Below are positions 708 to 50,403 of a stretch of DNA of 64,000 nt, one piece after another. Within the stretch, counting starts at the first letter, position 1. Every line of letters starts with the position of its first letter. A program made the position numbers and the translations under genes. The stretch comes from an uncultured bacterium (GTDB lineage Bacteria; Chloroflexota; UBA5177; JANWHV01), in contig CAWHAE010000014.1 of the NCBI GenBank assembly GCA_963827235.1, positions 224,001 through 288,000 of the forward strand, given 5' to 3'. Below the pieces are notes generated by a model. The model saw only the letters and a list, made by a program, of their open reading frames with translations, did no database searches and was not told where the DNA came from.

Positions 708-736
708 TTGACGCCAACTGAACTGCCAAGTAGGAT
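708..736 (+). promoter_or_regulatory. Sigma70-type promoter TTGACG-N17-TAGGAT
   Basis: -35 at 708-713, -10 at 731-736, 17-bp spacer; no convincing CDS downstream. Confidence 0.7.
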
Positions 737-742
737 GGTCGC

Positions 743-1117
743 ATAGTGCAGGTATCCGGAGGCTGACAGCCTCCCAGCCAGCGCCTAGAATGGAGACTTC
801 CTATGTACGCACGCGGGAAGCCACATCTGTTCTTCGGAGTCTTGCAGATCGATTGATGCCGGCCCGGCCTTCCTGTGGATTACGCGACAGTTGGTCCGTA
901 GGATTGCCGGAATAGGAGGGGGTATTCGCTCGTCGCCACCCCGCAGGCCATCCGCCCGCGCACTACTTGGGTCCTCGAGATCGGCATCATTCGAGGAACG
1001 AATGCGGCGGAGCCGTTTCGAGCCGACGGATGGCATTCCAGGCGGATGCCGAAGGTAGGAACTGCTCGTCTTGGATACGACCGAGAGGGGAGGGCGGCGG
1101 AAGCGCCCTCCCCTCTC
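743..1117 (+). ncRNA. Candidate large structured non-coding RNA of unknown class
   Basis: Promoter upstream and hairpin downstream; ends pair (GTATCC 752-757/GGATAC 1073-1078); long-range helix 850-861/982-993; hairpins with G-U pairs; cUUCGg loop at 832-837; possible pseudoknot 947-954/1027-1034. Confidence 0.55.
1083..1117 (+). terminator. 14-bp perfect GC-rich hairpin, likely 3' end of the upstream transcript
   Basis: GAGAGGGGAGGGCG-gcggaag-CGCCCTCCCCTCTC; only a weak T tract follows. Confidence 0.65.
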
Positions 1118-3070: not shown

Positions 3071-3111
3071 GACGGGGCGCAGCCTGCAACCACGGCAGGC
3101 TGCGCCCCGTC
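3071..3111 (+). terminator. 17-bp perfect hairpin downstream of the DUF5666-like gene
   Basis: GACGGGGCGCAGCCTGC-N7-GCAGGCTGCGCCCCGTC. Confidence 0.65.
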
Positions 3112-5873: not shown

Positions 5874-5916
5874 AAACTCGAGGACGGCGCGCATTCTGCG
5901 CGCCGTCCTCGAGTTT
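5874..5916. terminator. Bidirectional terminator between convergent csp and ABC ATPase genes
   Basis: 20-bp perfect inverted repeat AAACTCGAGGACGGCGCGCA-ttc-TGCGCGCCGTCCTCGAGTTT. Confidence 0.8.
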
Positions 5917-8586: not shown

Positions 8587-8611
8587 CTTGCTCGTCTGAG
8601 GAGTGATGTTG

Positions 8612-9693
8612 ATGGCTGACTCACCAGGACCTACCGGACCTGCTTCCCAGCCGGTCGCCGGAGTGACGTCGCGCGGCCGCACCAGTTTCTCCGCCTGGCT
8701 GGCTGCACGAATCGACCTGGTACTCCGCCTTGGCCTCTTCCTGATCATCGTGATCGAGGCGGTCGTCTTCACCATCAAGACCATCCCGAGCGGGAGTATC
8801 TCCGATATCGGAACCTCCACATTCATCAGCGTCGGCAACCTGCAGGACATCGGCAGGCAGATGGCAGTGATCGGGGTCCTTGCGCTCGGCGAGACTTTCG
8901 TGATCATCACCGCCGGTATCGACCTCTCGGTGGGCTCCACGATCGGCATCACTGGGGTGATCTGCGGCGAGGCGATGACCAACGGCTGGCCCGCAGCCCT
9001 GGTGATAGTGATGGTCCTCCTCTTTGGCGTCGGCATCGGCCTGGTCAACGGCACTCTGGTGGGCGTGGCCAAGGTTCCCCCGTTTATCGTCACCCTGGGC
9101 ATGTTGGGCATCCTGCGCGGCGCAGCCTACCTGGTGACGGGAGGCATCAACCTGGCGCTCTCTCCCACCGGCGCGCCGACGCCGTTCACGGACTGGGTCG
9201 AGACCACGAATCTGGGCGTGCCAAACATCTTCGCCGTGCTGCGTCGTGCTGGGCATCGTCGCCGCCTGTTTCTTGCGCTACACGCGCCGCGGCCGCTATA
9301 TCTACGCCCTGGGCAGCAACCCCGAATCGGCACAGGCGAGCCGGCGTCAATGTGATCGCCACGATCCTGACCGTCTACGTGCTCAGCGCCGTGTTGGCGG
9401 CTGCGGCCGGCTTGCTGCTTACCGGCAGGCTGGGCACCGCCAATCCCAATGCGGGCTTGAGCTACGAGCTCGACGCCATATCCGCCTGCGTGCTTGGCGG
9501 CGCCAGCCTGTTCGGCGCGCGCGGCGGCATTGTCGGCACGTTCCTGGGCGTGGTGCTGGTGAACACACTGGCCAACGGCATCGACCTGATCGGTATCGAT
9601 CCGCACATGCAGCAGGTGATCGAAGGCGCTTTGCTGATCATGATCGTATGGCTGGACCAGTGGCGAAAGCAGCGCGTCGTCCTCGGGGAGTAG
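8612..9693 (+). CDS. Sugar ABC permease (RbsC-like), frameshifted around 9240-9350
   Basis: GIDLSVGS, PPFIVTLG, GRYIYALGSN, YELDAISACVLGGASLFG spread over three frames. Confidence 0.85.
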
Positions 9694-9782
9694 GCGGCTG
9701 CTCCGGGGAGCGAGAGCACGCTGCTGTGCGTTCGCTGGTACAGCCTGCGATCGTTCGCCGCTGTTGCGGCAGGGTGGGGACC

Positions 9783-10837
9783 GTGAAAGGCAGCGCCTCG
9801 GATCGACGACAGAAAACCGTCACCATCAGCGAGGTCGCTTCGCTGGCCGGCGTGTCGATCGCCACGGTGTCGCGTGTCCTGAACGGCGCCACGACCGTCG
9901 ATCCCGTGCTGGCCGGGCGGGTTCGCTCCGCCTGCGCCGAGCTGCAGCTATCAGCCGAACCGGGCCGCGCGCATGCTCGCCGGCCATCGATCCTCGCTTA
10001 TCGGTCTCCTGGTCACCGACATGCAGAACCCCTTCTTTATGGAGATGGCGCGTGGCGTCGAGGACGTTGCCCTGGAGAAAGGGTTTCTGGTAGCCCTCTG
10101 CAATTCGGCCGAGGACGCTCGACGCGAGCGCCGGTTCATCGAGGCACTGTGCGCCGAGGACATAGCCGGCGCCATCATCGTGCCCGCGAACGAGCGACAT
10201 ACACCGCTGCAGCTCTTCCTCAATCGCGGCATTCCCGTGGTCACGGTCGACCGCCGATCGCACCTCGACTCGGTGGACGCCGTGATAATCGACAACGTGT
10301 CTGCCGGCAAAGAAGCAGTGGCGCACCTGATCGCCAACGGCTATCGACGCATCGCCGTGATCGCCGGGCAGCAGACCAAGACGACTGGGCATGACCGCCT
10401 GAGGGGATACCAGCTTGCCCTGCAGGAAGCCGGTATCCCGCGAGAGCCTTCCTACGAGCGAGTCGGCACCTATGAGCAGGGCGTGAGCCGGCATATCGTC
10501 GGCGAGCTGCTGGCGGTCGGATCCGCCGCCGGAAGCGCTGTTCACGACAAACAATCGCATGACCATGGGAGCCCTGGAGGCGATTCACGAGCGCGGCCTG
10601 CACATTCCCGAGGACATCGCTATCGTCTGCGTGGACGAGCTCCCATGGGCCTCGCCGGTGGCGGTGCCCTTGACCGTCGTACGGCAGCCCGCCTACGAGA
10701 TCGGTAGCGCTGCCGCCATGCGTCTCGACCAGCGCATGCAGCATGGCGGGTCGGCATGACGCGCCAGGACATCGTCCTCGCCCACCAGTTCGTCGATCAG
10801 GGAGTCGTCGCGCCCGAAGGCGGCCGTCGCCCTCTGA
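9783..10837 (+). CDS. LacI-family transcriptional regulator, several frameshifts
   Basis: TISEVASLAGVSIATVSRVLN HTH; NPFF; IPEDIAIV; LTVVRQP in successive frames. Confidence 0.85.
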
Positions 10838-10985
10838 CTCCGGGCCTGACTGGCTCGAGCCCGAACCTGTCCGGCCGGCCGGCTGGGACGCTGAGCTTTC
10901 CGGCCTGTAAGCTCCCGGACCCTCTACGGTCGCCAGTCGCACGAGTGCCCCGGGGCCTCTGGCCGAATCCAAGCAAGTTGCACTG

Positions 10986-12060
10986 TTAGTGAAGCGCAGT
11001 GCCTCGTCAGGCCGCGCGATCTTGCCGTCGAGATCCCACAGATCCTCCCACGAGCGCGCGCCTCAGGCCAGAGAAAACCTGCCCTTTGATCAGCCGGCAG
11101 TTCCTGTCGATGGTGGCCAGCTCGGCCATCTCGCCCGCGGTCAGGGGCTCGGAGACGGCGGCCCTCAGATTGCCGAGATACTCGTTCGGTAAATCGAGAA
11201 CGGGATAGGAATCTGTCCCCGTTGCACGGCCCACTTGACACAGACGACCGCCGGGATGCACGTTCAGCCGCCGGCGATGCGCACGGACGACCGGGTCTTC
11301 GATGTCGACAGTGTCGGCTCGGATCTTGTCCCGATCCGGCCTGGTCGGTGATCCGATTGGGCTGAATCCGATGGGCACGATGCCGTTGTCCAGTCACGAA
11401 CTTGAACAGCTCGGGCTGCTGGAAATGGGGATGGAGCTCCATCTCGTTGCAGGCCGGCTTGACCGCGGCGTCCCTCAGCAGAAGCTTCAGCTTGGCGATC
11501 GACATGTTGGACGTGCCGATGTGGCGCACCAGTCCGCGCGAGACGAGTGCCTCCATCTGTCGCCAGGTGGCCATGAACTCCTCGTGTACGTATGGCCGGG
11601 CGTGCGGATCGCGCGAGCTCACGTCAACGCCCGGCGCGTGAGCATTGGGAAACGGCCAGTGCACGAGGTAAGGTCCAGGTAGTCGAGCCCCAGGTCCTTG
11701 AGCGACTGCTCGCAGGCGGGAATCACGTCCTTCGCCGCGTGCTTGTCGTTCCAGAGCTTGGAGGTGATCCAGAGATCCTCCCGCGGCAGTCCCGCACGCA
11801 TGGCAGCCGGCCAGCGCTTCGCCGATTATGGCCTCGTTCAGGTACACAGCCGCACAATCAATATGCCGGTAACCTACCTCGATAGCACCCTTGACCGCCT
11901 CGCCAACGGCCTCGAGTGGAAAGCGGTCCGAGGCAAAAGTGCCGAGTCCGATGGCCGGGATGCTTGGCGCCGGTCCAGGTCGAGCGCTGAGGAACAAGCC
12001 GCGGGATCCACGCCGTCCGGCGCTCCGGCGAACGTCTGGGAGGGTTGTCGATGCTGGCAT
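10986..12060 (-). CDS. Aldo/keto reductase, frameshifted (3' end approximate)
   Basis: IGLGT, GYRHIDCAAVYLNE, ITSKLWN, YLVHWP, IGTSN, NEMELHP. Confidence 0.85.
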
Positions 12061-12076
12061 CTGCTGACCTCCTGCG

Positions 12077-13131
12077 TCACTCCCAGACGATGGCGACTTT
12101 ACCCGTCTTGCCCTAGATCGAATAGCTCGTACGCCTCACGTGCCTGGTCGAGGCGTGAACTTGTGCGTCACCAGATCGGTCGGGATGCAGTCCCCAGCGC
12201 ACCAGATGCTCGACCAGGTCGATCATCTGCGGCATGCTGCACACCCAGGATCCGTGCAGCGTGATCTGCTTGTGGATGAGCAGTCGGGCTGGGCGCGAAC
12301 TCCACAAGTCCGCCTTCGCCGACGTAGACGACCCGTCCCCACTCGCGCGCGACTTCCAGACACAGGCGCCGCGCAATGGCGTTGCCGGAGCAGTCGATGC
12401 CGACCTCATACCCGCGTCCGCTCGTCTCCTTGAGCAGAGCCGCTTCAGGTCGTTTGCCTCCTGCGGCGCAACCACCGTGCACACCTGTAGCTGCTCGGCC
12501 AGGGCAGCGCCGTTCAGGCATGGTGTCGGTACCTACCACGCGGGCGCCCATGGCCTGGCAGAGCATGGCGACCGCGAGGCCGACCGGTCCGAGGCCCGGT
12601 CACGAGCACGGTGTCCCGCCCGGACACGCCGGCGCGAAGACAGGCTGCATAGGCGGTGCCGAGTCCGCAGGCCACCATGGCGCCGTCAAGATAGCTGAGC
12701 TCGTCAGGCAGCGCCACCAGTGTGCGCTCCTCGGCCAGAAGGAATTCGGCATGCCCGCCGTCGCGCTGCCAGCCATAGGCGGCGCGCGTATCGCTCGTGC
12801 AGCTTATCTGCCAGCCACCCTGGCAATCCGGGCACAGTCCGCAGCCCGCGATGTGGTACATCACCACGCGGTCACCCGCATGAAACCTGGTCACGCCGGG
12901 CCCCACCTGCTCGATCACGCCGCAGGGCTCGTGGCCGGCGATCACACCGCGGTACGCCTCGGGACCGCTGCCCTGGTCTGTCGGCCTGTAGATGGCCCGC
13001 AGATCGCTGCCGCAGAGCGACGACGCCTTCATCCGCACCAATGCCTGGCCCGGACCGGGGGTGGGCACGGGAAACTCGCGAAACTCCAGTCGGCGGTTAC
13101 CGGGAAGGACCACGCCTTTCATGGTTGCCAT
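12077..13131 (-). CDS. Zinc-dependent alcohol/polyol dehydrogenase, frameshifted
   Basis: [19 protein letters not shown] Zn cluster; C-terminus ...[11 protein letters not shown]. Confidence 0.87.
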
Positions 13132-13205
13132 TGCTCATCCTTCTTCCGTGAAATACAGTGCAGACACCTTGAACTTGTACCAATCACTCGACCACCGCAG
13201 CGATG

Positions 13206-28410: not shown

Positions 28411-28636
28411 GTGCGTCCTTTCACGGCGATTCCGCCTCGGCAAGTCCGGTGACCGCCAGCCCTCACCGGACGCCTACCCTTGCGCAGCCAACTCCATGGT
28501 ATCGCCTCGGCAACGGCAGGCGAGTCCCGGACCCAGTCTCGACCGCGGCACATGCAAGAGGCCCGGGAGCTTGCTCCGGGCCTCTCGCGAGCAGCAACGG
28601 CTGCCCGGCCTCTACGAACCGTCCGTCTTCAGACGG

Positions 28637-33969: not shown

Positions 33970-35686
33970 CTACGCGGGCTCGCGTTCGCCGAGCACCGCA
34001 CGCAGCAGCTCTTGCTCCGCTGCCCTGCACCACTGACCGTTATCGAGCTTTGCAGCAACCGTGGGGAAGCGATCGCCGAGCTGTGACAGCGCGATCAACT
34101 CCACGTCGTGCAGCATGGGATAGACGACGATCTTGCCCGCCATGGTGCGGTTCTCCACCGCCGCGATGCCGTCGGCCGCACCCGCCATGCCGGATATGGC
34201 GTCGACCGACCAGTTTGTGTCGAGCTGCCCGGACGTCACCCGTTCCAACATGATCTTCATGTCATGGATATTCGAGCCGCTGGTGCCGAACATGTAGCAG
34301 CGGCGTGCGATGTAGGTATCCAGGTCCAGGTCGTGCCGGGCAGGAGCAGGAATGCCGGCGAAAATATCGATCAAGCCGCCTTCGGCGCTCGATACTATCG
34401 CCGCCGCCACGAGCGCCGCCGGAAGGGACCAGCAGTCTGCTGATTGCTGAAGCGCGCCTTCAGCGGCTCTTTGGCGTGTTGACCAGTCTGAGCGGCACGC
34501 CGTTGCGCCTTGCGATCGGCTCGGCCTTGCGCCTGAGCGACTCCAGGCGCGCGTCGTCAACGTCGGTACCAACCACCGAGAGGCCCTCGATCGGCGCGAC
34601 AGGGCGCGGATGACGTGCATCTGACCCATGGGTCCGGCCGCGCCAACCACCAGGACGCTGTCCTTGCGGCCGCAGCTCACCCGATACCGGAATAACGCGA
34701 GTAGGAGTCGGCGCAGGAGATGCCCGTGCGTGCCTATCCAGCGGGTAAACCCGTAGTGAATGCGGCCTACGCCGACCGAGACCGGCGGCCCGATAGACTG
34801 CCCGCCGAGCACGATATTGATCATGCCAAATGCGGCAAGCTTGTCGTTGAGGAGCCTCGATCGTCTTCTTGGCCGCGCCGAAGTAGACGATATCGTCGAA
34901 GCCTCGTTTCCAGACTGTCCGTTCTGTCCAGAATAGGATCGGAAAGCCCAGCTCCTCGATGCGCGCGCGCTGGCCAGGTTCAGCGACGATCGCGGTCACG
35001 TAAGGCATGCCCGCGCTCGCCTTCGCCGCCTCCGCGCAGGCCGACCACCTGGTGACCCGAGTCGGCCACCACGAGCAGGCGTCCACCCCGCAGGATAGTC
35101 GGCGATCGACATGAGCATAAGCGTCCTCGACGCAGGCCCAGGGTTCCACAAGGGCGATGCCGACGCGCTGAGCGATTCGGGCACCGGAATGAGGAATGCG
35201 TTCTCCGGTCTGGCCGGCTCGATGTTGATACGCTCGTCGGTAAGCACATACTCCTGAAGGCCGCCTTCGAACGAGTAGCCGAAAGCCGCGTTGGATCCGC
35301 GCGTTGGGAGGAATGCGATAGTCGGTCTGCACCAGGCAGCGCTCGCCGACCTTGGTAGCGCGTTACGTCTGTTGCCTACAGCCACGATACGGCAGCAGAC
35401 CTCGTGTCCGGGCACGGTCGGCTTGTCCCCAGGCACGTAGCTCGGGCACTGGTCGAGCACCGCCCGGTCGATACCCGGACACGATTTCGGCCTTACGCGG
35501 GTGCGCGGAGAACTGCTTGAGCAGCTTCAGATCCGAGAAGCAGAGCCCGACTGCTTCGACCTTGATCAGGATCTGGCGCGGCCCAGGCTGAAAGATCTCC
35601 TTGTGCGAGTTCAGGCTGAGCTGTCCGGGCCCGACCAGCTGCAACGCGTATTGCGTCTTTCCGGCCGAATATTCACGCTCTGTCAT
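33970..35686 (-). CDS. Long Zn-binding dehydrogenase (L-sorbose-1-phosphate reductase-like), multiple frameshifts
   Basis: GLCFSDLK, PGHE, AFGY..GGLQEY, EPWACV, GAAGPMG, GTSGS, GKIVVYP across frames. Confidence 0.75.
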
Positions 35687-35792: not shown

Positions 35793-37847
35793 CTAGTGCA
35801 GCATCACCTGTCCGCCGGTCACCGGCAGTGCTTGCCCGGTCTCGTACTTCTGCTCGATCAGGTAGTAGATTGCCTTCATCACGTCGGCAGTCGTACAGCC
35901 TCGCGCCATTGGCACCTTGCTCTCGTAGAAACGCCTGACATCGTCCACAGTTGTGGCGCCCGGCACCTTACCCGTACGCAGATACTGCACGAACAGGCCG
36001 GTGTTCGGATCGGACCACAGCGGTCCGGTCAGGAAGTTGCCCGGGCAGATCGAATTCACCTTGATGCCGTCCGAGACCAGCTCCAGCGCAAACGACTGCG
36101 TGAGGCCGATGCCGCCGAACTTGCTGCCCGCGTAGGCAAAGTTCTTGTTCGAGCCCTCAAGGCCCGACTTCGAGTTGATCTGGATGATGTCGCTCCAGTA
36201 GTCGGGCCGTACCTGGTGCTGAATGGCCAGTATCGGTGCCGCCGCCTGCACGCAGACGAAGTAGCCTTTGTAGTTGACCGCGGTCGACAGGTCGAAGTCT
36301 CGCTCGGCTTGTGTCTTGACGCTGGCGGCGCGAAGCACGCCGGCATTCGAGACCAGCACGTCCAGGCCTCCGTACGTGCGGACTACCTGGTGGATCGCGG
36401 TCGGCAACCGACCGACGCTGGTCACGTCGACTGCAAGGCCGAGCGCCCGCCCCTCGCCGTGACTTTCGTTGATGGCATCCGCGGCCTGCCGTGCCCCGGC
36501 GGCGTTGACGTCTGCCAGCACGACGCAGGCGTTCTGCACCGCCAGGTCCTGGGCGATTTCCAGGCCGAATCCCTGCGCTGCCCCGGTTACCAGGGCCACC
36601 CTGCCGGCCGCACGACCGGAGCCCAGCGACGACGCGGCAATCTGCCGGCGATACGACTCGACCTCCCACTGTTCGATGAACGTGCGGAAGTCTTCGTCAA
36701 GATAGGCGATTCCACCCAACTTGCTGGCCCCGATCATGACCCTGATCGCATCGCGATAGACCAAGCGCACGAAGTTGGCATCAGGCCAGGCTCCGCCGCT
36801 CGCGAACAGCCCCAGACCCTGCACGAGGACCACGTTTGGCAGCAACTTATGCCGCTCCTCGTAGTCGCGCACCGCCGTGGAAAGCCTGCCTGCCAGCTCT
36901 GCCGGCGACTCGCCCGCCACCGTATCGATCCAGAGCGGGAACGAGCGGCAGTAGACGATTTGGTCGGGGGTGAGGGGACCGCCCATGGCGATCTCACATC
37001 CACCCGGCGTCGACACGATATCGTGTATCAGATCGTCGGTCGTCGAACGTCACGACATTCAAGGCCTCGCCCTTGCTGAGCAGGCCGCGCAAAGCCGGGC
37101 CAATCGTGTCACCAGCGACCGGGCTTCCACAGCGGAGACGCGCTGCTGCGCGGCGGGCCGCGTGCCTGGACCTGCGCTCTCGAGAGGTCGCTCAGCATGT
37201 CGAACAACCACTCGACGTCCTCCCGGATGTCATCCGCGGTGTCGCCGCAAAGCACCAGGCCATGGTTCTGCATGATCACCGCCCGAGGCCGCTCCTTGCC
37301 TGTCGCGCGCGGAACGCCTTCAGTTCGTCGCGCAGCAACCTGGCCAGGGCAAAGCCCGGATCGACGAGATCTATCCACAGTCACGTCGTCTGCGAGGCGA
37401 TGTTCGATCAAGTGCTTACCCGCTCTTGAGCACAACTGAATTGGTTGACCAGCGTGGCGTGCAGATGGACGACAAAGCGACCCGGCATGAGATGGTGCAG
37501 GACTGATTCCACGGATGGACGTTGCTGCTTCTCGGGCTGCAGCCGCGCCGCGAGCACGGCTGCCTTGAACTCGCTCTCGCGAGCCTGCCTGCGAGGTGCT
37601 CAGCTCACTGTCGAGCAGTCTCTGCAGGGCGGAGCGATCGAGATCCACGAATCCGTCCGGACCAATCGAGGCGAGCGCGGCACCGCTGCCTTTCACCTGC
37701 AGATGGTCGCCGAGCTTGACCGAGGTGTTACCGCCGCCGCCAAGGACGAGGTCCGGGATCCGATCCGAAGTAGCGTGACAGCTCGACAATGGTCTCCAGA
37801 GGGCCGAGTTCTTCGACCGAGGCCGGCCATGGAACGGTTGACGCCAT
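35793..37847 (-). CDS. Class II aldolase-like/SDR fusion (SDR resembles sorbitol-6-phosphate 2-dehydrogenase), frameshifted
   Basis: GGGGNTSVK, KGSG, MQNHGL, TPDQIVY; SDR TGAAQGFG, INSKSG, YAGSKFGG, ICPGN, ETGQALPVTGG. Confidence 0.8.
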
Positions 37848-37857
37848 GAATATCCTC

Positions 37858-39158
37858 TTACTCGCGATTTACAGCGGCACGGGCGCGCGCTGGCTGGGCA
37901 TACTGGTCGATGACTGCCGCTCCCAGGCGGGCATACGCCTCGAGGCGTGCCTCGCCGGCACCGTGGTCCCGGCCCGGCATTCCAGCCTCGTCCACGTAGC
38001 CGCTCTGCCCGTTGGCAATCAGGAACTGGTGCGCAGCCACCACGCATGCGCCTTCCCAGAAGATGTCTTTGACTGGCTCGGGTACGGGTAGCGTCGCCCG
38101 CGCACCTCGGCTCCAGCGGCAGCATCTCCGGCGAGTTGTGCTCCGTACCCGCGAGCACGGCAATGCCCGCCGCACGCAACCCGCGAACGTAGGCAGTCAG
38201 CACCTCGGGAAGGTTTCTGTTCGGAATCAGCTCGGCGCAATAGATGTGCCGGTCCGCGAGCGTGCTCACCAGGCGCTCGACCGGTTCCTCGAACGGGCAT
38301 ATGGGCGAAGCGCCGTCTGCCAGTACCGGATAGCACGGAATCCCTCCCAGGGCCAGCACCAGTGCGTACGCGTGATCGAAGCCGACGAACGTCTCTTCTA
38401 CATAGCCGGGTTTTCCCGCCTTCATGAGCTGGCTGCGAATCGTATTCTGCACCGGGAGCGCGTCAGTTAGCCCTCCCACCCAGGTCCACTCCCAGCACGA
38501 CGCCCAGAACACCGGCTCGACGTTCCGGCGCAATACGCTCGAAAACCGCCTCCTGGAACGCCTGCGCCACGTGCCGTTCCTGCAGAAAGACTGAGGAGTA
38601 CGGCACACCGTAGCGTTGCACTACTGCCGCCTTGATGGACTCCTCGCTGACGCCGGTCTCCATGCCGTGTGCGGCAAAGAGTCCGGCCAGCTTGTCGATC
38701 ACGGCAGCGAGCCTTGTCGAGTCGCTTCGCCGGATAGTCTCCAGCAAGCCGACCGCGGTGCCGGACATGGGGGAGAAGCGGGAGATGCCTTTGCCGCAGA
38801 GGTACATCTTGCCGGGGTTGCCGGGATCGTTGATTTTGACTCCGGCGAGGGCAAGGTCGTCGATCAGGCAAATCACCTCAAGCCCGAACAGAGGAAAGAC
38901 GTTCGCCGATCTGGCCAGATCGGCGAACGCCTCGTACACGCCGAAGTCGTAGTAGTTGTTTACGCCGACCACGCCGATGCCTTCGGCGGTCGCCCGCCGC
39001 AACACCTCGTCGACCGACTGGAATGCGGAGAAGTTGGGCGGAATGTGAATGTGCGCGTTGACCTTGATCCGGCCCGGCGACCTCACCTTCCGCTGCCAAA
39101 GCTCCTCAGGATCGCCCAGCGTCTTCAAGGCAGCAACGGGATCGTGGGCAACGGCCAT
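37858..39158 (-). CDS. PHP-domain metallo-hydrolase-like protein, frameshifted
   Basis: NAHIH, FGLE, NDPGNPG, ERHVA, GGIPCYPVLADG, ELIPNRN, GTEHN. Confidence 0.75.
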
Positions 39159-39328
39159 CGGTTCTTCCTCCGGCGCCGCCTGCCGGCGCGAGCCTTCCAT
39201 ACAACCCTCAGGTGCGTGACGGCAGTCGGACTTGCGCAACGACTCGCGGCCGGCCGCTCATCACAGAGTTACATACTTTGACAATATATTACATCGACCA
39301 CCGGCTCCGTGCCAAGACTGGCCTGCCG

Positions 39329-39652
39329 TCAGTCGACGTGAAACACTTCAGGCAGACGCACCCACCACTCGCCTGGGCCATGCTCCGGCACTTGCTCCTG
39401 CATGGGGTCGGTATGGGACCACCACTCCATGGTCACCGGATCGGCGGCCATCTTCTCCATGTCGGCCCGGTAGTCGCTGCCGGCGTACTCGAAGTAGGCG
39501 ATCAGCAGCGTTCCATAGCGATAGATCGAGTAGTTGCGGATGTTGCATGCCGAGATGGTGGCCAGCACGCCCGGCCACACCTGACTGTGAATGCGCTCGT
39601 ATTCAACGACTCGCTCGGGCTTGACGCGGACGACTTGCAGATAGCGCTCCAT
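39329..39652 (-). CDS. rhaM: L-rhamnose mutarotase
   Basis: EYERIHSQVWP, NIRNYSIY, EWW, EVFHVD. Confidence 0.9.
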   Translation of the reverse strand: MERYLQVVRVKPERVVEYERIHSQVWPGVLATISACNIRNYSIYRYGTLLIAYFEYAGSDYRADMEKMAADPVTMEWWSHTDPMQEQVPEHGPGEWWVRLPEVFHVD

Positions 39653-39667
39653 TTCGACGGCGCTCCT

Positions 39668-40903
39668 CTACCAGCTCATCGCCGTGCCGCCCACGCGGGC
39701 GGCATTGATGCGCTCCTGGTAGCCACTGGCCTGAAACGCCGCCAGAGGGTCGGCAGGACAACCAAGGTCGGTTCTCACCTGGGCAAGCAGCGGCCGCACG
39801 TCAGTCTCGAAGGCGGCAGTGAGCACGGCAAGGGCGCCGACCACGTCTCCGGCCTGCTGCTTCCGCGCCAGCACCGGACGATCCACCAGCAGGGCCTTGG
39901 CGTAGGCGGACTGGCAGTTGACGATCGACTGGATCATGGCCGGGATCTTGGCCTCCACGTTATGCGACTGGTCGATCATGTACGCCACCTGCTTCGCGCA
40001 CGCTTGGACGGCCGCGTCATCTTCGGCCGCGGCAAGCTCGTTGTAGATCAGGAAGAGCTCGAAAGGATTGGTCGTGCCGACGATCAAATCGTCGTCCCCG
40101 TACTTCCTGCCGTTGAAGTGGAAACCGCCCAGGCGACCTTCATCGATCAGCGTGGCGACGATCTGCTCGATGTTCGTGCCCGGCGCGTGGTGCCCCAGGT
40201 CCACCAGCACCTGAGCCTGCGGCCCGAGCTTCTGGCAGAGGAGCAACGACGTGCCCCAGTCCGGGACGTCGGTTGCGTAAAACGCCGGCTCGAAGAACTT
40301 GTATTCGACCAGCAGCCTCATGCCGGCCGGAAGCGCCGCATAGATCTGCCGTAGCGAGCAGGTCAGGCGCTGCCGCCTGCCGCGAAGATCGTCCTGTCCT
40401 GGGTAGTTGGTGCCGTCGGCCAGCCATAGACTGATCAGCGACGACCCAACGGTGCGCGCGATGTCGATGCATTCGTGGACGTGCGCCACGGCCTTGGCAC
40501 GCACTGACTCGCTGGGATGAGCCAGCGAGCCCAGCTTGTATTCCTCGTCCTGGAAGAGGTTCGGGTTGATCGCGCCGAGCATCAGCTTGCGACCGGCCGC
40601 GTGCTCCTGCGCGGCCTTCCAGTCGTCCACACGGTCCCAAGGGATGTGCAGTGCGACGCTGGGCGCCACGCCGACCAGCGACTGCACCTCTGCCGCGTCG
40701 TCCAGCTTCTCGAACAGCGTGCGCGGCACGCCGGCTTGTGGAAACACCTTGAATCGCGTCCCCGAGTTGCCGAATGCCCAGCTCGGCATCTCAATCCGCT
40801 GCGCGCGCAAGCGCGCAGCCACGTCCTCGAGCTTCCTGCCTTGCCCCGCAAGGATCTCGGCTACCACAGAGAGACCGGCCGACTGCATGCGTTCTGCGAC
40901 CAT
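39668..40903 (-). CDS. rhaI: L-rhamnose isomerase (RhaI type)
   Basis: PSWAFGNSGTRF, LHIPWD, WLADGTNYPGQ, EYKFFEP, DLGHH, GFHFN, IDQSHN. Confidence 0.93.
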   Translation of the reverse strand: MVAERMQSAGLSVVAEILAGQGRKLEDVAARLRAQRIEMPSWAFGNSGTRFKVFPQAGVPRTLFEKLDDAAEVQSLVGVAPSVALHIPWDRVDDWKAAQEHAAGRKLMLGAINPNLFQDEEYKLGSLAHPSESVRAKAVAHVHECIDIARTVGSSLISLWLADGTNYPGQDDLRGRRQRLTCSLRQIYAALPAGMRLLVEYKFFEPAFYATDVPDWGTSLLLCQKLGPQAQVLVDLGHHAPGTNIEQIVATLIDEGRLGGFHFNGRKYGDDDLIVGTTNPFELFLIYNELAAAEDDAAVQACAKQVAYMIDQSHNVEAKIPAMIQSIVNCQSAYAKALLVDRPVLARKQQAGDVVGALAVLTAAFETDVRPLLAQVRTDLGCPADPLAAFQASGYQERINAARVGGTAMSW

Positions 40904-41012
40904 TATCGAGCTCCCACTGTCACTGCGTGAGGCTGAGGCCTCCTTGCCCGGCGCTCTCCCGGCCGGCGCGCCCTCGCCTGACCCCGCCCACCGGAGCGGA
41001 CGTGGCCATCCC

Positions 41013-41187
41013 AGGATAGATCGAGCTGTAAAGTCATGTCAACATGTGTAAGAGTTTTAGCCTCTGACCGCGAGAGCGTTTCCAGATTCTCTCGTAAACG
41101 TTCTCGGATTCTCGAGAAAACGTTGCCACGCCGTTGACATGAGATGCCCACCGCCCCAGACTCATAAGCGCACATTGATTAAATGTG
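41013..41187. promoter_or_regulatory. Divergent rhaI/ino1 promoters flanking three tandem LacI-type sites
   Basis: Minus TTGACA(41037-41042)-N18-TATCCT; plus TTGACA(41134-41139)-N17-CAGACT; sites at 41072, 41094, 41116; CACATT-N5-AATGTG at 41171-41187. Confidence 0.65.
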
Positions 41188-41331
41188 TCTTTATGCATTC
41201 GGACTGCCGGGCCTGCCGGTGGGCCGGTCCAATGAGCTGAGGGCCACCGACGCCCCGCCTATCAGGCCATCTCGCTCGACCGGCTTGGCGCACGGCACGG
41301 CAGCCCGCATATGATCGGAAAGGGATTCGTC

Positions 41332-42432
41332 GTGGGCAAGGTCAGGGTAGCCATCGTCGGGGTTGGGAACTGCTCCTCCGCGCTTATCCAGGGAGTGTAC
41401 TACTACCGAGACGCGAAGGAAGGCGACTTCGTGCCCGGACTGATGCACGTGAATCTTGGCGGCTACCATGTTCGTGACATCGAGTTCGTGGCCGCGTTCG
41501 ACGTCGACTCGCGCAAAGTGGGCAAGGACCTGTCGCAAGCCATGTTCGCCGAGCCCAACAACACAATCAAGTTCTCGGACGTGCCGCACCTCGGCGTGCC
41601 GGTTCAGCGGGGCATGACACACGATGGTCTGGGGAAGTACCTCTCGGAGATCATCACCGAGTCTGCCGAACCGGTTGCCGACGTGAAGTCGATCCTCCGT
41701 CAGGCAAAGTGCGACGTCGTGATCAACTACCTGCCGGTGGGCAGCGAAGTAGCCACAAGGTGGTACGTCGGCCAGGTGCTCGAAGCCGGCTGCGCCCTGG
41801 TCAACTGCATTCCCGTGTTCATCGCCAGCGAGGACAGATGGCAGCGTCGCTTCGTGGAGAAGGGCCTGCCGATCGTGGGAGACGACATCAAGTCGCAGGT
41901 CGGGGCCACCATCACGCATCGGATGCTCGTCCATCTCTTCCGCGAGCGGGGTGTGCGGCTCGAGCGTACCAGCCAGCTCAACGTGGGCGGGAACACCGAC
42001 TTCCTCAACATGCTGGAGAGAGAGCGCCTCGAGTCGAAGAAGATCTCCAAGACCAACGCGGTGACGAGCCAGCTCGATTATGAAATCGACAAGTCGAACG
42101 TGCATATCGGTCCCAGCGACTACGTGCCGTGGCTGACCGACCGCAAATGGGCCTACGTGCGCTGCGAAGGCCGCACGTTCGGCGACGTACCGCTCAACGT
42201 GGAGATGAAGCTCGAGGTATGGGACTCGCCCAACTCGGCCGGGGTCGTGATCGATGCAGTGCGCTGCGCCAAGCTCGCTCTGGACCGCGGCACAGCCGGC
42301 ACCCTCGGCGGACCGTCCGCGTTCTTCATGAAGTCGCCGCCCGTGCAGTATGCCGACGACGTGGCATACGGCATGGTGGAGGACTTCGTTGGCGGCAGAG
42401 TAGGCCGCGAGGCCGCCGGAGCGGTGGCGTAG
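41332..42432 (+). CDS. ino1: myo-Inositol-1-phosphate synthase
   Basis: [53 protein letters not shown]. Confidence 0.96.
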
Positions 42433-42593
42433 CGAGTACCCGGGCCATGGCGAGGAGATGGAGAACAGGGACTCCGACCGAGATCTAGCGACAGCTGCGG
42501 GGACAACAGCCTCAGCCGCGCCTCACGGCAGGAGCGCGGTACGAAGGCATCTGGCTATGGCCGGAGGCCCTCGTACCCCGGTCGCGCTGCTCC

Positions 42594-44108
42594 TCAGCTC
42601 CCGGCCACGCCCGCGATCTGCGCCCTGGCGCGCATCGCGACGAGCCGGCTGTGCAGCTCGTCCCAACTTCCGCCGGTACGCGGCTCGTACCGTTGCACCT
42701 GGGCGGACGCCCGGGCGACTTCACGCGCCTGGGCCATGCCGCGGATCTCGCCGGCGCCCATGGCCTGCACGAGCAGGTTTCCCAACGCGGTCGCCTCGGT
42801 CGGGCCGGCCACCACTCGCCGGCCGGTGGCGTCGGCTGCCAGCTGGCAGAGCAGGCTGTTGCGCGATCCGCCGCCGACGATGTATACGGCCTCCACCGGC
42901 GTATTAGCTAGACGCTCGAGCTGTTGGACGGTAAGTCTGTAGGTGATGGCCAGACTCTCGAGAATAGCCCGCGCAAGCACCTCAGGCGTGTCCACCCGCT
43001 CGCGCTCGGCCGCGTTGAGCTGCACCTTGATCGCCGCTGGCATGTCGTCCGGATGCAGGAACGCCGGGTCGTCGACGTTGATCACCACACGCGGGGAGTC
43101 GACTGCTGCCGCCCGCTCCATCAGCTCCTGGTAGCTCCAGTCGGCCTGAGTCCGGCTGCGCGCCCATGCCCGTCGGGACTCCTGCAGAAGCCACAGTCCC
43201 ATGATGTTCGTGTGGAAACGATACGTGCCGCCGGCGCCTCGCTCGTTGGTGAAGCCCGCCAGCCGGGCCGCTTCGCTGGTGTTCGGGCGCAGCAGCTCCA
43301 TGCCCATCAACGACCAGGTGCCGCTGCTCAGGTAAGCATGTCCATGACCCGAGCTATCCGGATCCGCCGGCACGGCGGCCACGGCGCAGGCCGTGTCGTG
43401 CGTGGGCGGTACGATGACCGGTACCGGACCCAAGCCGCTCTCCTGCCGCGTACCCGGTCGAAGCGTGCCCAGCACCATTCCTGCCGATACCGGTCCGGTC
43501 AGCATGTGAGACGGCACGCCCAGCCGCCCGATCATCTCGCGATCCCACTCGCCGTCAATGCCGAGGGCGCCAGAGGTGCTGCCGTCTGTTTGCTCGCATG
43601 CCTGTTCGCCGCACAGCCAGTAGTGCATCAAGTCCGGCATCATCAACATATTCCGCGCCAGCTCGAGCGTACGGTCACCCGATCGCACGGCAGCCATGAG
43701 CTGGTAGAGCGTGTTGAACTGAAGCTGGGCAATGCCTGTGCGCGCGAACTGCTCGGCAGCGGGCACGATCTTTGCCGCCTCGGCCGGCATGCCGTCCGTC
43801 CGGGCATCGCGGTAGTGGTAGGGATTGCCGAGCAGACGTCCTTCGAAGTCCAGCAGCCCGTAGTCCACGCCCCAGGAATCCACACCGATGCCTGCGACGT
43901 CGCCGGGATGCAGGTCGGCTGCTCGCTTCAGGCCAGCCAGGATCTCACGATAAATGCCCAACGTGTCCCAGTGCAGGCCGTCCGGCGTGCGAACGGGGAC
44001 ATTGGGAAATCGATGGATCTCCTCGAGCTCGAAGAGCTCCCCGTTGAACGCGCCCGCGATGACGCGACCGCTCTCGGCGCCCAAATCGACGGCAAGATAG
44101 CGAGACAC
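42594..44108 (-). CDS. rhaB: Rhamnulokinase
   Basis: DLGAESGR, DSWGVDY, FNTLYQL, HDTA, SSGTWSL, NIMGLW, GPTEATALGN. Confidence 0.93.
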   Translation of the reverse strand: MSRYLAVDLGAESGRVIAGAFNGELFELEEIHRFPNVPVRTPDGLHWDTLGIYREILAGLKRAADLHPGDVAGIGVDSWGVDYGLLDFEGRLLGNPYHYRDARTDGMPAEAAKIVPAAEQFARTGIAQLQFNTLYQLMAAVRSGDRTLELARNMLMMPDLMHYWLCGEQACEQTDGSTSGALGIDGEWDREMIGRLGVPSHMLTGPVSAGMVLGTLRPGTRQESGLGPVPVIVPPTHDTACAVAAVPADPDSSGHGHAYLSSGTWSLMGMELLRPNTSEAARLAGFTNERGAGGTYRFHTNIMGLWLLQESRRAWARSRTQADWSYQELMERAAAVDSPRVVINVDDPAFLHPDDMPAAIKVQLNAAERERVDTPEVLARAILESLAITYRLTVQQLERLANTPVEAVYIVGGGSRNSLLCQLAADATGRRVVAGPTEATALGNLLVQAMGAGEIRGMAQAREVARASAQVQRYEPRTGGSWDELHSRLVAMRARAQIAGVAGS

Positions 44109-44127
44109 GCTACTTTCCTCCCGATCC

Positions 44128-45183
44128 TCAGCCAAAATCTTGTACTGCAGTATAGAGAGCTACAACGTTCTCCGTAGGCGTGTTTGCCTGAATGTGATGG
44201 CACGGGGCAACGATATATCCCTTGCCGCCGCGAAATGCCCGGATGTTCTCAGCCACCTGCTCCCGCACGTCGGACTCACTGCCAAAGGGTAGTGTATGCT
44301 GGTTGTCCATGCCACCGTGAAAGATGAGCTTGTCGCCAAAGTCTCGTGCCAGCCCCTCGCGGTCCATGCCGGCGCATCGCCACTGAATGGGGTTCAGAAT
44401 GTCGACGCCCGCCTCGATAAGGTCGGGGATCATGGGGCGCATAGCACCGTCGTCGTGGTGCATAACGCGCACGCCGTAGGAATGTGCGAGCGCGATCAGC
44501 TTCGCCATGCGCGGTTTGAGAAAGCGCCGGAACAGGCGCGGACTCATGAGCAACGACTGTTGAGTGCCCAGGTCCTCGGCCACGTACATCAAGTCGATGT
44601 GGTCGCCCACCTCGCGCAGAATCCGGCTGAACACCGCGTGGTCGACGGCAAAGATGTGCTCGAGAATGCATTCCGCGATCTCGGGCGACTCGATCAGGTC
44701 CGCCAGTGACCGCTCCATGCCCCGCAGTCGGCAGTAGAGATAGAACGGCTCGCTCGAGCCGCACAGAATCGGATTCTCGGGCCACTCCGCGCACTGATCC
44801 CGCAGTGTGCTGTAATCCCACGTGTCGACCTGGGGCCAGTCGAACGCGTCCACGTCGGCCACCGATTCCGCTCCGGCAAGCGGGTAGTTCACCGCCTCTT
44901 CGTAGACGCCGAGTCCCTCCCCGTAGGAGATCATCTCCGTGCCGATGTGCCAGATCTTGAAGTGGGACTGCATGTGCCAGCCATCCGAGGCTACAGTCGC
45001 ATGTCGCGGCACCAGATGGATGCACTTGTCCACACCGAGCCGCTCATAGAGCTCGCGCTCGCCCGAGCAGCCCAGATCCTTGAGCAGGCGGGCGGTCACT
45101 TCAGCAGTTCCCCAGTAATCGCAAGGCACGCGATCGGGGCGCTCTCCGTCGAAGAGGGCTCGCCAGCGTTGGCGAGGTGTCAT
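44128..45183 (-). CDS. Uroporphyrinogen decarboxylase/MtaA-fold family protein
   Basis: RPDRVP, LRGME, EDLGTQ, HHDDG, GVDILNPIQ, GGMDNQ..LPFG, APCHHIQ. Confidence 0.88.
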   Translation of the reverse strand: MTPRQRWRALFDGERPDRVPCDYWGTAEVTARLLKDLGCSGERELYERLGVDKCIHLVPRHATVASDGWHMQSHFKIWHIGTEMISYGEGLGVYEEAVNYPLAGAESVADVDAFDWPQVDTWDYSTLRDQCAEWPENPILCGSSEPFYLYCRLRGMERSLADLIESPEIAECILEHIFAVDHAVFSRILREVGDHIDLMYVAEDLGTQQSLLMSPRLFRRFLKPRMAKLIALAHSYGVRVMHHDDGAMRPMIPDLIEAGVDILNPIQWRCAGMDREGLARDFGDKLIFHGGMDNQHTLPFGSESDVREQVAENIRAFRGGKGYIVAPCHHIQANTPTENVVALYTAVQDFG

Positions 45184-45243
45184 CCTCCTACCTCCCTGGA
45201 GTGGACAGGGTGGACGGCCCCGCCGGAGACCGCGGGCACCCGA

Positions 45244-45282
45244 TGCGCGGGCCGGGACAGTCCCGCTGTCCCGGCCCGCGCA
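45244..45282 (-). terminator. 17-bp hairpin after the rhamnose substrate-binding gene
   Basis: TGCGCGGGCCGGGACAG-tcccg-CTGTCCCGGCCCGCGCA. Confidence 0.7.
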
Positions 45283-45333
45283 GTGCCGAGCGCCACCGGT
45301 CAGGTGCCGAATCGCCCTGCCGGAACACGTGTC

Positions 45334-46347
45334 CTAGAAGTGGAACTTGTCGATGTTGGTCTTGTCAAATACGGTCGGAGGCCCGAGCACGACCACGTTG
45401 TTGGCGCCGATCGTGTACGCACCGAGTCCGGGCACCGTGAACTTCTCGCCCACTTTGCCGGTGATCGTGCCGGCCACGAGGTCATGCGCGACGTATTCAG
45501 CCAGGTAGCCCAGGTTGCCCGGATCCCACAGCGCGAAGGCAGGAACCTGTCCGCCCTTCACATAGCCGCGCATGTCGTTAGGCGTTCCCAGACCGGTGAC
45601 CAGTACTTTACCCGTCTTGCCGGCCACTTTAACCGCTTGAGCTGCCGCGAGGATACCTATCGTGGTCGGCGAGATGATGCCTTTGAGGTTGGGATAGCTG
45701 GTGAGCAGGCCGTTGGCTTCGGTCGTGCTCTTGTTCGGATCATCGTTGCCGTAGGCGATCTTGACCAGCGTCATGTTCTTGTACTTGGGCAGAGCCAGCT
45801 CCTGCTTCATGAAGCCGATCCAGGCGTTCTGATTGGTCGCCGTGGTGGTCGCGCTCAGAATGGCAACCTGACCCGTGTAGTTCAGCAGCTTGCCGATGAT
45901 CTGAACCTCGATGCGGCCAATCTGCTCGGTGTCCGCCTGATTGACGAACACGTTGCGCGCACCGACCGGATCGGAGTCATAGCCGACGACCTTGATCCCC
46001 TTGGCCATTGCCTTTTGCAGAGAGGCCTTGATCGCGCCGGGATCGTTGGCCGAGACGACGATCGCGTCGGCGTGCTCAGTGATGAGCTGGTCTACGTACT
46101 GCGTCTGCGTGGTGGTGCTGCTGGAGGTCGGCCCGACCATCTTCAGAGTGTCGCCGAGCGCCTTGTTGGCGCGAAGGCTGCCGTTATAGGCGGTGGTGAA
46201 GTACGGATTATCGGTCGTCTTCGGCAGCACGAATACCTTGTAGGGTTTCGCCGCGTGAGCGATGTGCATTGCCGCCTGGGGCACGGCCGTTGCGGCCACG
46301 CTGCCAACGAGAACCGCGGCACAGAGAACGCGAGTGTACCGGCGCAT
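45334..46347 (-). CDS. rhaS: Rhamnose ABC transporter substrate-binding protein
   Basis: Signal peptide; PK..DNPYF, ATNQNAWI, YGNDD, ISPTT.G, TGLGTPN, ALWDP, NIDKFHF. Confidence 0.9.
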   Translation of the reverse strand: MRRYTRVLCAAVLVGSVAATAVPQAAMHIAHAAKPYKVFVLPKTTDNPYFTTAYNGSLRANKALGDTLKMVGPTSSSTTTQTQYVDQLITEHADAIVVSANDPGAIKASLQKAMAKGIKVVGYDSDPVGARNVFVNQADTEQIGRIEVQIIGKLLNYTGQVAILSATTTATNQNAWIGFMKQELALPKYKNMTLVKIAYGNDDPNKSTTEANGLLTSYPNLKGIISPTTIGILAAAQAVKVAGKTGKVLVTGLGTPNDMRGYVKGGQVPAFALWDPGNLGYLAEYVAHDLVAGTITGKVGEKFTVPGLGAYTIGANNVVVLGPPTVFDKTNIDKFHF

Positions 46348-46435
46348 ACTACGAATACTCCTTTATTGATGGACGGCGCAAGCACGCATGTGGTGCTTTG
46401 CAATTACATGCACCTTCCCGATTGTAACCTTCCTG

Positions 46436-47524
46436 TCAGTCGCCTCCTTTCATTGCCACCCGGCGCAATCCCAGGCGCTGCGCCACTCTAGGGCCAAGTA
46501 TGGAGAGGATGAGCAGAGCGCCGATGACGATGGTCTGGTCCTGGTCGCCGATATTGGCAAGACCCATACCATTGCGCAGAATGCCGATCAGGAAGAGGGC
46601 GAGGACCGTGCCTCCCATGCTGCCCGAGCCGCCGTTGATGTCGGTGCCGCCCAGCACCACCGCAGTGATCACGTCGAGCTCAAACCCGGTACCCATGTCC
46701 CATCGAGCGCTACCCTGCCGCGACGCGTAGATCAGTCCGGCCATGGCGGCGAACAGGCCGGACACGGTGTAGATCGCTATCTTGATCCTGTCTACCGCGA
46801 TACCGGAATATCGGCACGCGTCCTCATTGTTGCCTATGGCGTATACGAGTCGTCCGAAACTCGTGCGGTGGAGAAGCAGAGCGAACACGATCGCAAGGAC
46901 GATGAAGATCAACAGCGGCCAGGGTACCATGTCGCCGAACGGCAGCAGCGGCTTCACTCCGATGTAGCCCTGGCCCAGATTGTTGAAGCTGTCCGGGAAG
47001 GAGCTGACCGCGCGGTCGCCCAGGATGACCTGGGCCAGGCCGCGATAGAGCGCCATGGTGCCCAGTGTCACCACAAGCGGATGCAGCTTGATGCGCGTCG
47101 TGATTGCGCCGTTGGCGAAGCCCGCCACCAGGCCGATCGCCAGCGCCAGCAAAATGCTCACGCCCAGGTCTCCCGAGGTCGAGTAATGCAGACCGAACGA
47201 GACCCCCGCCAGCGCCATGACCGACGAGATAGAAAGGTCGATGCCTCCCGTGATGATGATCAGGGTCATGGGTAGGGCCATGATGGCTTTCTCCATGAAC
47301 TGGGACGTCATGTCGAAGAGGTTAGACCAATCCAGGAAGTAGGGAGACAGGTAGGTCGACCAAGCCCCGGCGACCACGATCAGCACCACTAACAATACTT
47401 CCCAGCGCATGAGGGTGTGGAGGGCAACTCGACCCAGTGCCGGCCCGTCGCCGGCCGGTGCCTTGTCGTCGGCTGCTGCCGGGGAAGCAGCAACACCGGA
47501 GTCGTGCTGGTGCCGCGCGCTCAT
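46436..47524 (-). CDS. Rhamnose ABC transporter permease
   Basis: IDLSISS, VVTLGTMALYRG, FELDVITAVVLGG. Confidence 0.92.
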   Translation of the reverse strand: MSARHQHDSGVAASPAAADDKAPAGDGPALGRVALHTLMRWEVLLVVLIVVAGAWSTYLSPYFLDWSNLFDMTSQFMEKAIMALPMTLIIITGGIDLSISSVMALAGVSFGLHYSTSGDLGVSILLALAIGLVAGFANGAITTRIKLHPLVVTLGTMALYRGLAQVILGDRAVSSFPDSFNNLGQGYIGVKPLLPFGDMVPWPLLIFIVLAIVFALLLHRTSFGRLVYAIGNNEDACRYSGIAVDRIKIAIYTVSGLFAAMAGLIYASRQGSARWDMGTGFELDVITAVVLGGTDINGGSGSMGGTVLALFLIGILRNGMGLANIGDQDQTIVIGALLILSILGPRVAQRLGLRRVAMKGGD

Positions 47525-50093: not shown

Positions 50094-50403
50094 CTACTCC
50101 TCCAAGAAACGCCGCGGCATCACCCAGCGACCGCTGCCAACACTGCCCATGGGTTCGGTATCGCCGCACGCGTCCCAACGGTCCGCGCCGGCCACGCCCC
50201 AGGACGGAAACCACAGGTGAAACGCTGCGAAAACAATAACACTGTTGAGCACTGTCGTCAAATTGTCGTCGTATCATGAGCGCTGGTGTGAGTTTTGTTT
50301 CGACACTACTGGTCGAGCCGGGCACGCGGGCAAGCCCGCGCCGGCCTCATTCCCATCCCAACAAGTCGAGCGGCGGCTTCCAGGTCACCGGCAACCTGCT
50401 GAC

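Follow-up and report, generated by a model that had tools for sequence, protein, structure and literature searches.

Positions 639-1431 of a 64,000-nt stretch of DNA from an uncultured Chloroflexota bacterium (assembly GCA_963827235.1, contig CAWHAE010000014.1, contig positions 224,001 to 288,000; hereafter the window) form a 794-nt gap between genes, the largest in the window. Within this gap, an element at about 708-1117 had been proposed to be a stand-alone, highly structured RNA. Our tentative reading is that it may be an unannotated small transcription unit on the + strand that carries a micro-open reading frame (micro-ORF), and not a new class of large noncoding RNA (ncRNA). The pair of promoter-like sites and the hairpin at the end of the element exceed chance expectation, whereas the overall fold does not. 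That the unit stands alone, with its own promoter and terminal hairpin, is plausible; transcription, translation and any function of a peptide are what we infer from the DNA. The features that make up the proposed unit are the following.

708-736, + strand: promoter-like site P1, TTGACG-N17-TAGGAT (TTGACG at 708-713, TAGGAT at 731-736), 9/12 consensus matches, predicted start near 743
763-791, + strand: promoter-like site P2, CTGACA-N17-TAGAAT, 10/12 matches, predicted start near 798, a few nt before the ATG at 803
792-795, + strand: GGAG, a Shine-Dalgarno-like motif, 7 nt before the ATG at 803
803-856, + strand: ORF of 17 codons encoding the candidate micro-protein MYARGKPHLFFGVLQID, with ATG at 803 and a TGA stop at 854-856
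864-910, + strand: hairpin of 19 pairs, several of them G-U, -24.9 kcal/mol, z -4.3 on the + strand and -2.6 on the - strand, beginning 8 nt after the ORF stop
1083-1117, both strands: G+C-rich hairpin of 14 perfect pairs without a T-run, -32 to -33.5 kcal/mol, z about -5 on each strand

One or both of the tandem sigma-70-type promoters (708-736, start near 743; 763-791, start near 798) would fire. The transcript would present the GGAG site at 792-795, the 17-codon ORF at 803-856 and, 8 nt later, the stable hairpin at 864-910, and would continue through some 170 poorly conserved nucleotides to the hairpin at 1083-1117, which would be its end or its stabiliser. The conserved functional core would be the ribosome site together with the micro-ORF, the product would most likely be the 17-residue peptide, and the 3ʹ part may have an added role at the RNA level.

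Both promoter-like sites have near-consensus hexamers separated by a spacer of 17 nt, within the 16-18 nt expected of the sigma-70 type. P1 is the near-consensus promoter on which the original prediction had relied, and our scan recovered it at 708-736 with 9 of 12 matches. P2, located 55 nt downstream with a higher score, is absent from that prediction; its -10 hexamer ends 12 nt 5ʹ of the ATG at 803, and a transcript from P2 would thus begin almost at the small ORF, with hardly any leader. Scanning positions 500-2300 returned two sites, compared with 0.4 ± 0.6 in shuffled sequence, and no promoter-like site on the - strand. When the same rule was applied to both strands of the whole window, 20 sites were found, 11 of them in the approximately 18% of the DNA that is intergenic. 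Apart from P1 and P2, eight of the nine intergenic sites sit 47-224 nt upstream of the start of a same-strand gene, indicating that matches to the consensus mark real promoters in this organism. P1 and P2 themselves are orphans, the next + strand gene being about 1.4 kb away, with no same-strand gene for 1443 nt past P1. A further intergenic orphan site lies at 35225-35252 on the + strand (TTGATA-N16-CATACT, 9/12 matches), about 6 kb or more from the next same-strand gene.

The ORF at 803-856 has the layout of a small ORF: a suitably spaced Shine-Dalgarno motif leads to a start codon, and the frame stays open up to a stop. Genes of the window with clear ATG starts carry GGAG or GGAGG 6-10 nt upstream, and the motif at 792-795 follows the same pattern. 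The codon-usage score of the ORF was +0.340 per codon over its 17 codons, compared with 0.42 ± 0.29 for in-frame gene segments and with a 95th percentile of 0.295 for off-frame segments, which is just under the score of the ORF. Five other ORFs tested in the gap all had negative scores.

Conservation could be assessed against a single relative. A HMMER search with the - strand reading frame of 788-1147 against 1.84 billion proteins gave two hits, P0001 and P0002. P0001, a 362-aa tandem-repeat translation, was set aside as spurious. P0002 is a metagenomic "hypothetical protein" of 95 residues from the Joint Genome Institute (E 3.8e-4), and a word search with it found only itself (2 members, one 1426-nt contig). 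It aligns to the - strand ORF at 785-1036 with the same stop, and the similarity is confined to 788-910 (47 bits, with 55% of 40 residues identical), and searches with only the N-terminal halves of the two sequences gave no hit. In this comparison at the level of translation, detectable conservation covers at most 123 of the 340 nt from 743 to 1082, and about half of the helices proposed for the element lie in the remainder.

785-1036, - strand: ORF of 83 codons opposite the unit, sharing its codon register with the ORF at 803-856 and judged to be a shadow ORF
788-862: conserved block 1, 15 of 25 codons giving the same residue as P0002 in the - frame
893-910: conserved block 2, identical to P0002 at all 6 codons of the - frame and forming the 3ʹ arm of the hairpin at 864-910

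The stretch between the blocks (863-892) has identical residues at 1 of 10 codons, compared with 21 of 31 in its flanks (Fisher p 0.0025). Block 1 coincides with the GGAG at 792-795 and the ORF at 803-856, and identity drops just past the ORF stop. P0002 is known as a protein only, changes at third positions of the - frame are invisible, and its codons are those inferred by parsimony. On back-translation under these terms, eight nucleotide changes were placed within 803-856, of which four would be synonymous on the + strand, one would turn TGA into TAA with the stop retained, and three would alter a residue (L to F, L to M or V, and R to L); the start codon of the relative would be ATG or GTG. 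The original prediction had named two small ORFs, 790-915 and 803-856, whose conservation with codon-type substitutions would speak against an RNA. The second is conserved and its changes are compatible with such substitutions. The first, a 41-codon + strand ORF, was ruled out, having no Shine-Dalgarno motif, a codon-usage score of -0.427 and an inferred stop at 850 in the relative. The unit does not resemble a type I toxin-antitoxin system, in which a hydrophobic, membrane-spanning toxin peptide is paired with an antisense RNA that has a promoter of its own: the hydrophobic stretch of the peptide extends over only 6 of the 17 residues, and no - strand promoter-like site was found in 500-2300.

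The hairpin at 1083-1117 is likely to be the 3ʹ end or a stabiliser of the unit, or else of the convergent genes that flank the gap. These genes, and the other hairpins of the same kind in the window, are listed here.

3-638, + strand: gene of the phosphotriesterase (PTE) family, C-terminal 211 residues (PF02126, E 2.2e-40), the upstream flank
1432-1623, - strand: small Zn_ribbon_8 (FmdB-like) gene (PF09723, E 1e-8), the convergent downstream flank, probably starting at the ATG at 1605
3071-3111, 5874-5916, 28557-28585 and 45244-45282: four other hairpins with G+C-rich stems of 10-20 bp, located 37-170 nt past a stop codon

The 14-bp terminal hairpin of the original prediction was recovered at 1083-1117 with all 14 pairs perfect. 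The scan of 500-2300 found no canonical terminator, and no U-tract follows the stem of this hairpin; the tail is TGCGTCTGCT. Five long perfect intergenic hairpins, including the one at 1083-1117, are present in the window, and none of them has a T-run; hairpins of this type are apparently the usual 3ʹ-end signal of this genome. The hairpin at 1083-1117 lies 445 nt and 315 nt from the stops of the flanking genes, compared with 37-170 nt for the other four, and an extra unit between the flanking genes fits this spacing. It shares the long perfect G+C-rich stem and the missing T-run with "I-shaped" hairpins, which lack a U-tract and have been proposed to act as terminators in bacteria of high G+C, although it is farther from any annotated stop than the other four such hairpins of the window. 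The terminator activity of I-shaped hairpins is disputed: mycobacterial RNA polymerase did not terminate in vitro at hairpins without a U-tract (PMC3993855). Two more perfect palindromes, at 38900-38929 and 57024-57050, are located inside genes.

Several points weigh against a translated micro-ORF. Seventeen codons are very few, which makes the codon score noisy, and about 5% of off-frame segments of 17 codons reach the same score. The third-position bias on the + strand is also seen at two changes outside the ORF (790 and 859), the protein-level search itself favours such conservative changes, and the bias, with 5 first-position vs 2 second-position changes, does not reach significance. All of this comes from one relative known as the translation of a - strand ORF, and block 893-910 is conserved yet lies outside the small ORF, which does not account for it. 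The hairpin at 1083-1117 has no U-tract, the kind that did not terminate in vitro in mycobacteria (PMC3993855), and it lies 227 nt past the ORF stop, compared with 37-170 nt at the other four.

The alternative that survives best is that the gap is a functionless spacer, which we consider unlikely but take seriously. The sequence would then be filler between convergent genes, its hexamers fortuitous or weak, its terminal hairpin shared by the PTE and Zn-ribbon transcripts, and its helices chance complementarity in G+C-rich DNA. Such a spacer would agree with the symmetry of the hairpin at 1083-1117, which is equally stable on both strands, like that at 5874-5916 between another convergent pair. 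It would also agree with the global fold, which is no better than that of shuffled sequence while control windows fold similarly or better, and with the expectation of a perfect 8-bp complement about once per 340 nt. Relic DNA is present in the window, as decayed genes occur at 8.6-13.1 kb. However, these decayed genes keep the third-position G+C signal and the gap has none: codon-position G+C is flat over 640-1430, and third-position G+C is near 0.8 in the flanking and other genes. A recent pseudogene in the gap was ruled out on this ground. A spacer would also require that two good promoter matches fell by accident into 84 nt, although matches of this quality track real gene starts in this genome. 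Conservation as uneven between blocks as that seen with the distant relative is not expected of neutral DNA, and the hairpin stands 315-445 nt from the flanking stops, compared with 37-170 nt for the other four.

Searches for relatives of the gap were made at several levels. A search of genome contigs with the flanking PTE protein gave 17 loci (L001-L017) that were 44-59% identical, with the top-ranked locus at 58%, mostly from Deinococcota (Calidithermus, Meiothermus and Trueperaceae) plus two alphaproteobacteria; this search ran on species-representative genomes, among which there was no close relative of the organism of the window with this gene. No match to the gap, the peptide or P0002 was found in these 17 loci with blastn, nhmmer or tblastn, and none to the gap in plasmid and phage collections with DNA and translated searches, an outcome in favour of a spacer. 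The - strand ORFs of 119 aa and 83 aa had no relatives in word-based protein searches. Of 10 ORFs from the gap and its surroundings, none was present in the protein collection as an exact entry, a look-up that depends on the exact start codon, and Pfam assigned no family to six ORFs tested within the gap or to the ORF at 1128-1595, which extends into the Zn-ribbon gene. The window holds no second copy of the gap and no meaningful repeat family, and a repeat or mobile element was ruled out accordingly.

The original prediction, namely a new structured ncRNA of about 340-375 nt whose ends pair, whose fold has several junctions and which contains a pseudoknot or a switch between alternative pairings, appears improbable. 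The promoter and the terminal hairpin that it requires are present, and so is the absence of known RNA families, by which the RNA would be new if real. Rfam 15, whose families include RNase P, tmRNA, SRP, 6S and riboswitches, gave no match in the whole window at the gathering threshold; the original prediction had also noted no signatures of RNase P, tmRNA, SRP or common riboswitches. A permissive search of 600-1300 (E up to 10) gave 12 sub-threshold matches (best E 0.3; 11-20 bits vs thresholds of 37-218), all of which overlap or adjoin the hairpin at 1083-1117; a search of 1100-2300 with E up to 1 gave nothing usable, and ARAGORN found no transfer RNA or transfer-messenger RNA genes. The prediction was also right that the next gene is convergent, as seen from the Zn_ribbon_8 ORF at 1432-1623 on the - strand, and that no same-strand gene has the region as its cis-leader, the next + strand gene starting only at 2179.

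The folding energy is where this prediction failed. The minimum free energy (MFE) of 743-1082 on the + strand was -134.6 kcal/mol, compared with -129.8 ± 5.5 kcal/mol for dinucleotide-shuffled controls (z -0.86), and 19 of 100 shuffles folded at least as well; on the - strand z was -1.07, with 18 of 100 shuffles as good. Replicate shuffles gave z values of -0.78 (+) and -1.50 (-). Ten control windows of 340 nt taken every 6 kb, some of which contain the other strong hairpins of the window, had a mean z of -1.41 (standard deviation 1.98), and five of them lay below 743-1082. In 100-nt sliding windows, none inside 743-1080 fell below -1.1, and only those that include the hairpin at 1083-1117 fell below -2. 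The folding energy is therefore not clearly below that of the shuffled controls, as would be expected of a structured ncRNA in general. "Highly structured" is not borne out, and a z-score no better than that of shuffled sequence is an outcome that the original prediction had itself counted as evidence against an ncRNA. Together with similarity to the relative in 123 of 340 nt only, this leaves an undescribed large ncRNA class without support.

At the level of individual helices the picture was mixed. The complementary segments of the proposed fold all exist at the positions given for them. In the thermodynamic model of 743-1082, the basal stem 752-757/1073-1078 kept 6/6 pairs (p 0.85), the hairpin at 758-774 kept 7/7 (p 0.97), and the long-range helix 850-861/982-993 had 11/12 pairs in the MFE structure (p 0.89). 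In contrast, the stem of CCTA and TAGG at 784-787/1056-1059 kept 0/4 pairs, and the hairpin at 825-849 with its UUCG loop kept 0/5 and 0/3, so that both are absent from the ensemble. The structural features concerned are as follows.

758-774, + strand: 7-bp hairpin in the 5ʹ leader of a predicted P1 transcript, z -3.7, -10.7 kcal/mol, overlapping the -35 hexamer of P2
849-994, + strand: long-range complementarity 849-861/982-994, 13 nt with one mismatch (92%), the 5ʹ strand covering the small-ORF stop
854-861/982-989, 981-988/1045-1052, 947-954/1027-1034 and 949-956/1041-1048, + strand: four perfect 8-bp complements, overlapping and mutually exclusive

The hairpin at 864-910 is more stable on the + strand because several of its pairs are G-U, and this strand specificity is in favour of an ncRNA; it and the hairpin at 758-774, which both stand out by z-score, were chosen post hoc. 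The element that would form a pseudoknot, GCCATCCG at 947-954, is complementary to CGGATGGC at 1027-1034, pseudoknots being outside the reach of the folding method used. Perfect 8-bp complements are in excess, with four in 743-1082 compared with 0.87 expected and none of 200 shuffles reaching four. However, the four share segments and exclude each other, therefore they cannot all form one fold. The longest perfect helix, at 8 bp, is ordinary (reached by 123 of 200 shuffles), as are 12-bp windows with at most one mismatch (30 of 200).

The comparison with P0002 bears on an ncRNA in both directions. The conserved blocks could equally reflect constraint on an RNA, but the similarity stops at 910, and 911-1082, with half of the helices, is not detectably conserved. 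For the hairpin at 864-910, eight pairs would be touched in the relative, of which four are kept by wobble pairing and four are broken, with no two-sided compensation; its 5ʹ arm has diverged there though its 3ʹ arm (893-910) is conserved. Pairing between blocks 1 and 2 was not above chance, its energy of -18.8 kcal/mol being reached by 10% of shuffles and by 26% of other segments of the window. OLE, GOLLD, HEARO, ROOL and raiA, which are Rfam families, have a similar size range, an intergenic location and no protein match in common with the element, which differs from them in having no Rfam hit, no excess folding energy and conservation over 123 nt only.

Interference with the neighbouring gene is somewhat less probable still. 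A + strand transcript would continue past the U-less hairpin, enter the Zn-ribbon gene on the - strand (1432-1623) and lower its expression by antisense pairing or polymerase collision. The orphan + strand promoters do face this convergent gene, which lies 315 nt beyond the hairpin, and a hairpin of this kind without a U-tract did not stop mycobacterial RNA polymerase in vitro (PMC3993855). Yet interference gives no reason for the conservation of block 788-862, and transcripts may still be stopped or trimmed by the hairpin, with its 14 bp, its -32 kcal/mol and a tail that is T-rich in part (TGCGTCTGCTTCATT). It is compatible with a small unit carrying a micro-ORF and does not exclude it.

It is very unlikely that the - strand ORF at 785-1036 encodes a real small protein of 83-95 residues, with P0002 as its orthologue and a functional conserved C-terminal segment of 25 residues. 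The frame is open in both sequences with the same stop, the substitutions are mostly conservative (V/I, D/N, E/K and Q/E), and P0002 was called as a protein by a gene caller. Against this, the codon-usage score of the ORF was -0.182, compared with a 5th percentile of 0.208 for real segments of 83 codons, and its conserved C-terminal 25 codons scored -0.255; third-position G+C is about 0.60, compared with about 0.79 in genes. No Shine-Dalgarno motif precedes the ATG at 1036, 500-2300 holds no - strand promoter-like site, the N-terminal halves of the ORF and P0002 are dissimilar, the start is not conserved, and no Pfam family matches. The ESM recognition value was 1210, compared with 2300, a level reached by 91% of known families, and AlphaFold2 gave a predicted local distance difference test score of 57.8 and a predicted template-modelling score of 0.12 with no secondary structure. 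By our own estimate, an open frame of 83 codons has a roughly 9% chance per frame at this G+C.

Among known systems, the proposed unit with its micro-ORF is closest to micro-protein genes and dual-function small RNAs such as SgrS/SgrT, RNAIII/hld and SR1/SR1P. Shared with these are a promoter of its own, a short ORF (at most a few tens of codons) led by a Shine-Dalgarno motif, a long hairpin-containing part that is not translated, a hairpin at the end and a place in an intergenic gap missed by gene callers. The unit differs from SgrS/SgrT, RNAIII/hld and SR1/SR1P in having no sequence relationship to them, in its shorter ORF of 17 codons and in being known from sequence alone. Leader-peptide transcription attenuators of the trp, his and erm type also combine a short ORF followed by a stable hairpin with mutually exclusive helices, one of which here (849-861) lies over the ORF stop. 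Unlike in attenuators, the terminal hairpin is separated from the next + strand gene by 1062 nt that include the convergent gene, the ORF contains no run of regulatory codons, and the terminal hairpin is not among the alternative helices.

Least probable of all is a dual-function RNA that encodes the 17-residue peptide and in which a ribosome at the stop region (849-861) would select among exclusive helices (849-861/982-994, 981-988/1045-1052, 949-956/1041-1048 and 947-954/1027-1034), switching the 3ʹ domain between two folds of different activity or stability. If this were true, the excess of exclusive 8-bp complements (0/200 shuffles) would be a designed switch and not noise.

Elsewhere in the window, a second long stretch without coding signal and without Rfam match (1624-2178, about 555 nt) lies between the Zn-ribbon gene and the + strand gene that starts at 2179, which encodes a probable secreted DUF5666-like protein. 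The region at 8600-13134 contains apparently decayed or frameshifted genes, which may be pseudogenes or assembly indels. These include an ATP-binding cassette (ABC) permease at 8600-9355 with only the N-terminal part of its profile (positions 5-109 of 269), and a LacI-family regulator split over two frames, its helix-turn-helix domain lying within 9246-10394 and a truncated ligand-binding domain at 9883-10707. On the - strand they include a partial aldo/keto reductase (10924-12060) and an alcohol dehydrogenase represented by its N-domain only (12514-13134). A large cluster for the utilisation of a deoxy-sugar of the rhamnose/fucose type occupies 35793-51210 on the - strand and encodes a rhamnose mutarotase, a xylose-isomerase-like TIM barrel protein, an FGGY kinase, a short-chain dehydrogenase, pieces of a class II aldolase, a sugar ABC transporter (binding protein, two permeases and ATPase) and a DeoR regulator. 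Within its span, a myo-inositol-1-phosphate synthase gene is located on the + strand at 41311-42432.

As matters stand, the practical value of the analysis is negative: unless comparative DNA or transcripts support it, the locus is not one to list as a new large ncRNA class. As neither the 17-residue peptide nor the fold has a known family, codon-type conservation or covariation would raise its importance. The analysis also carries a lesson, namely that chance gives rise to long helices in G+C-rich intergenic DNA, which can then be mistaken for a large structured RNA. If our tentative reading of a small + strand transcription unit is true, the gap would hold one more unannotated micro-gene.

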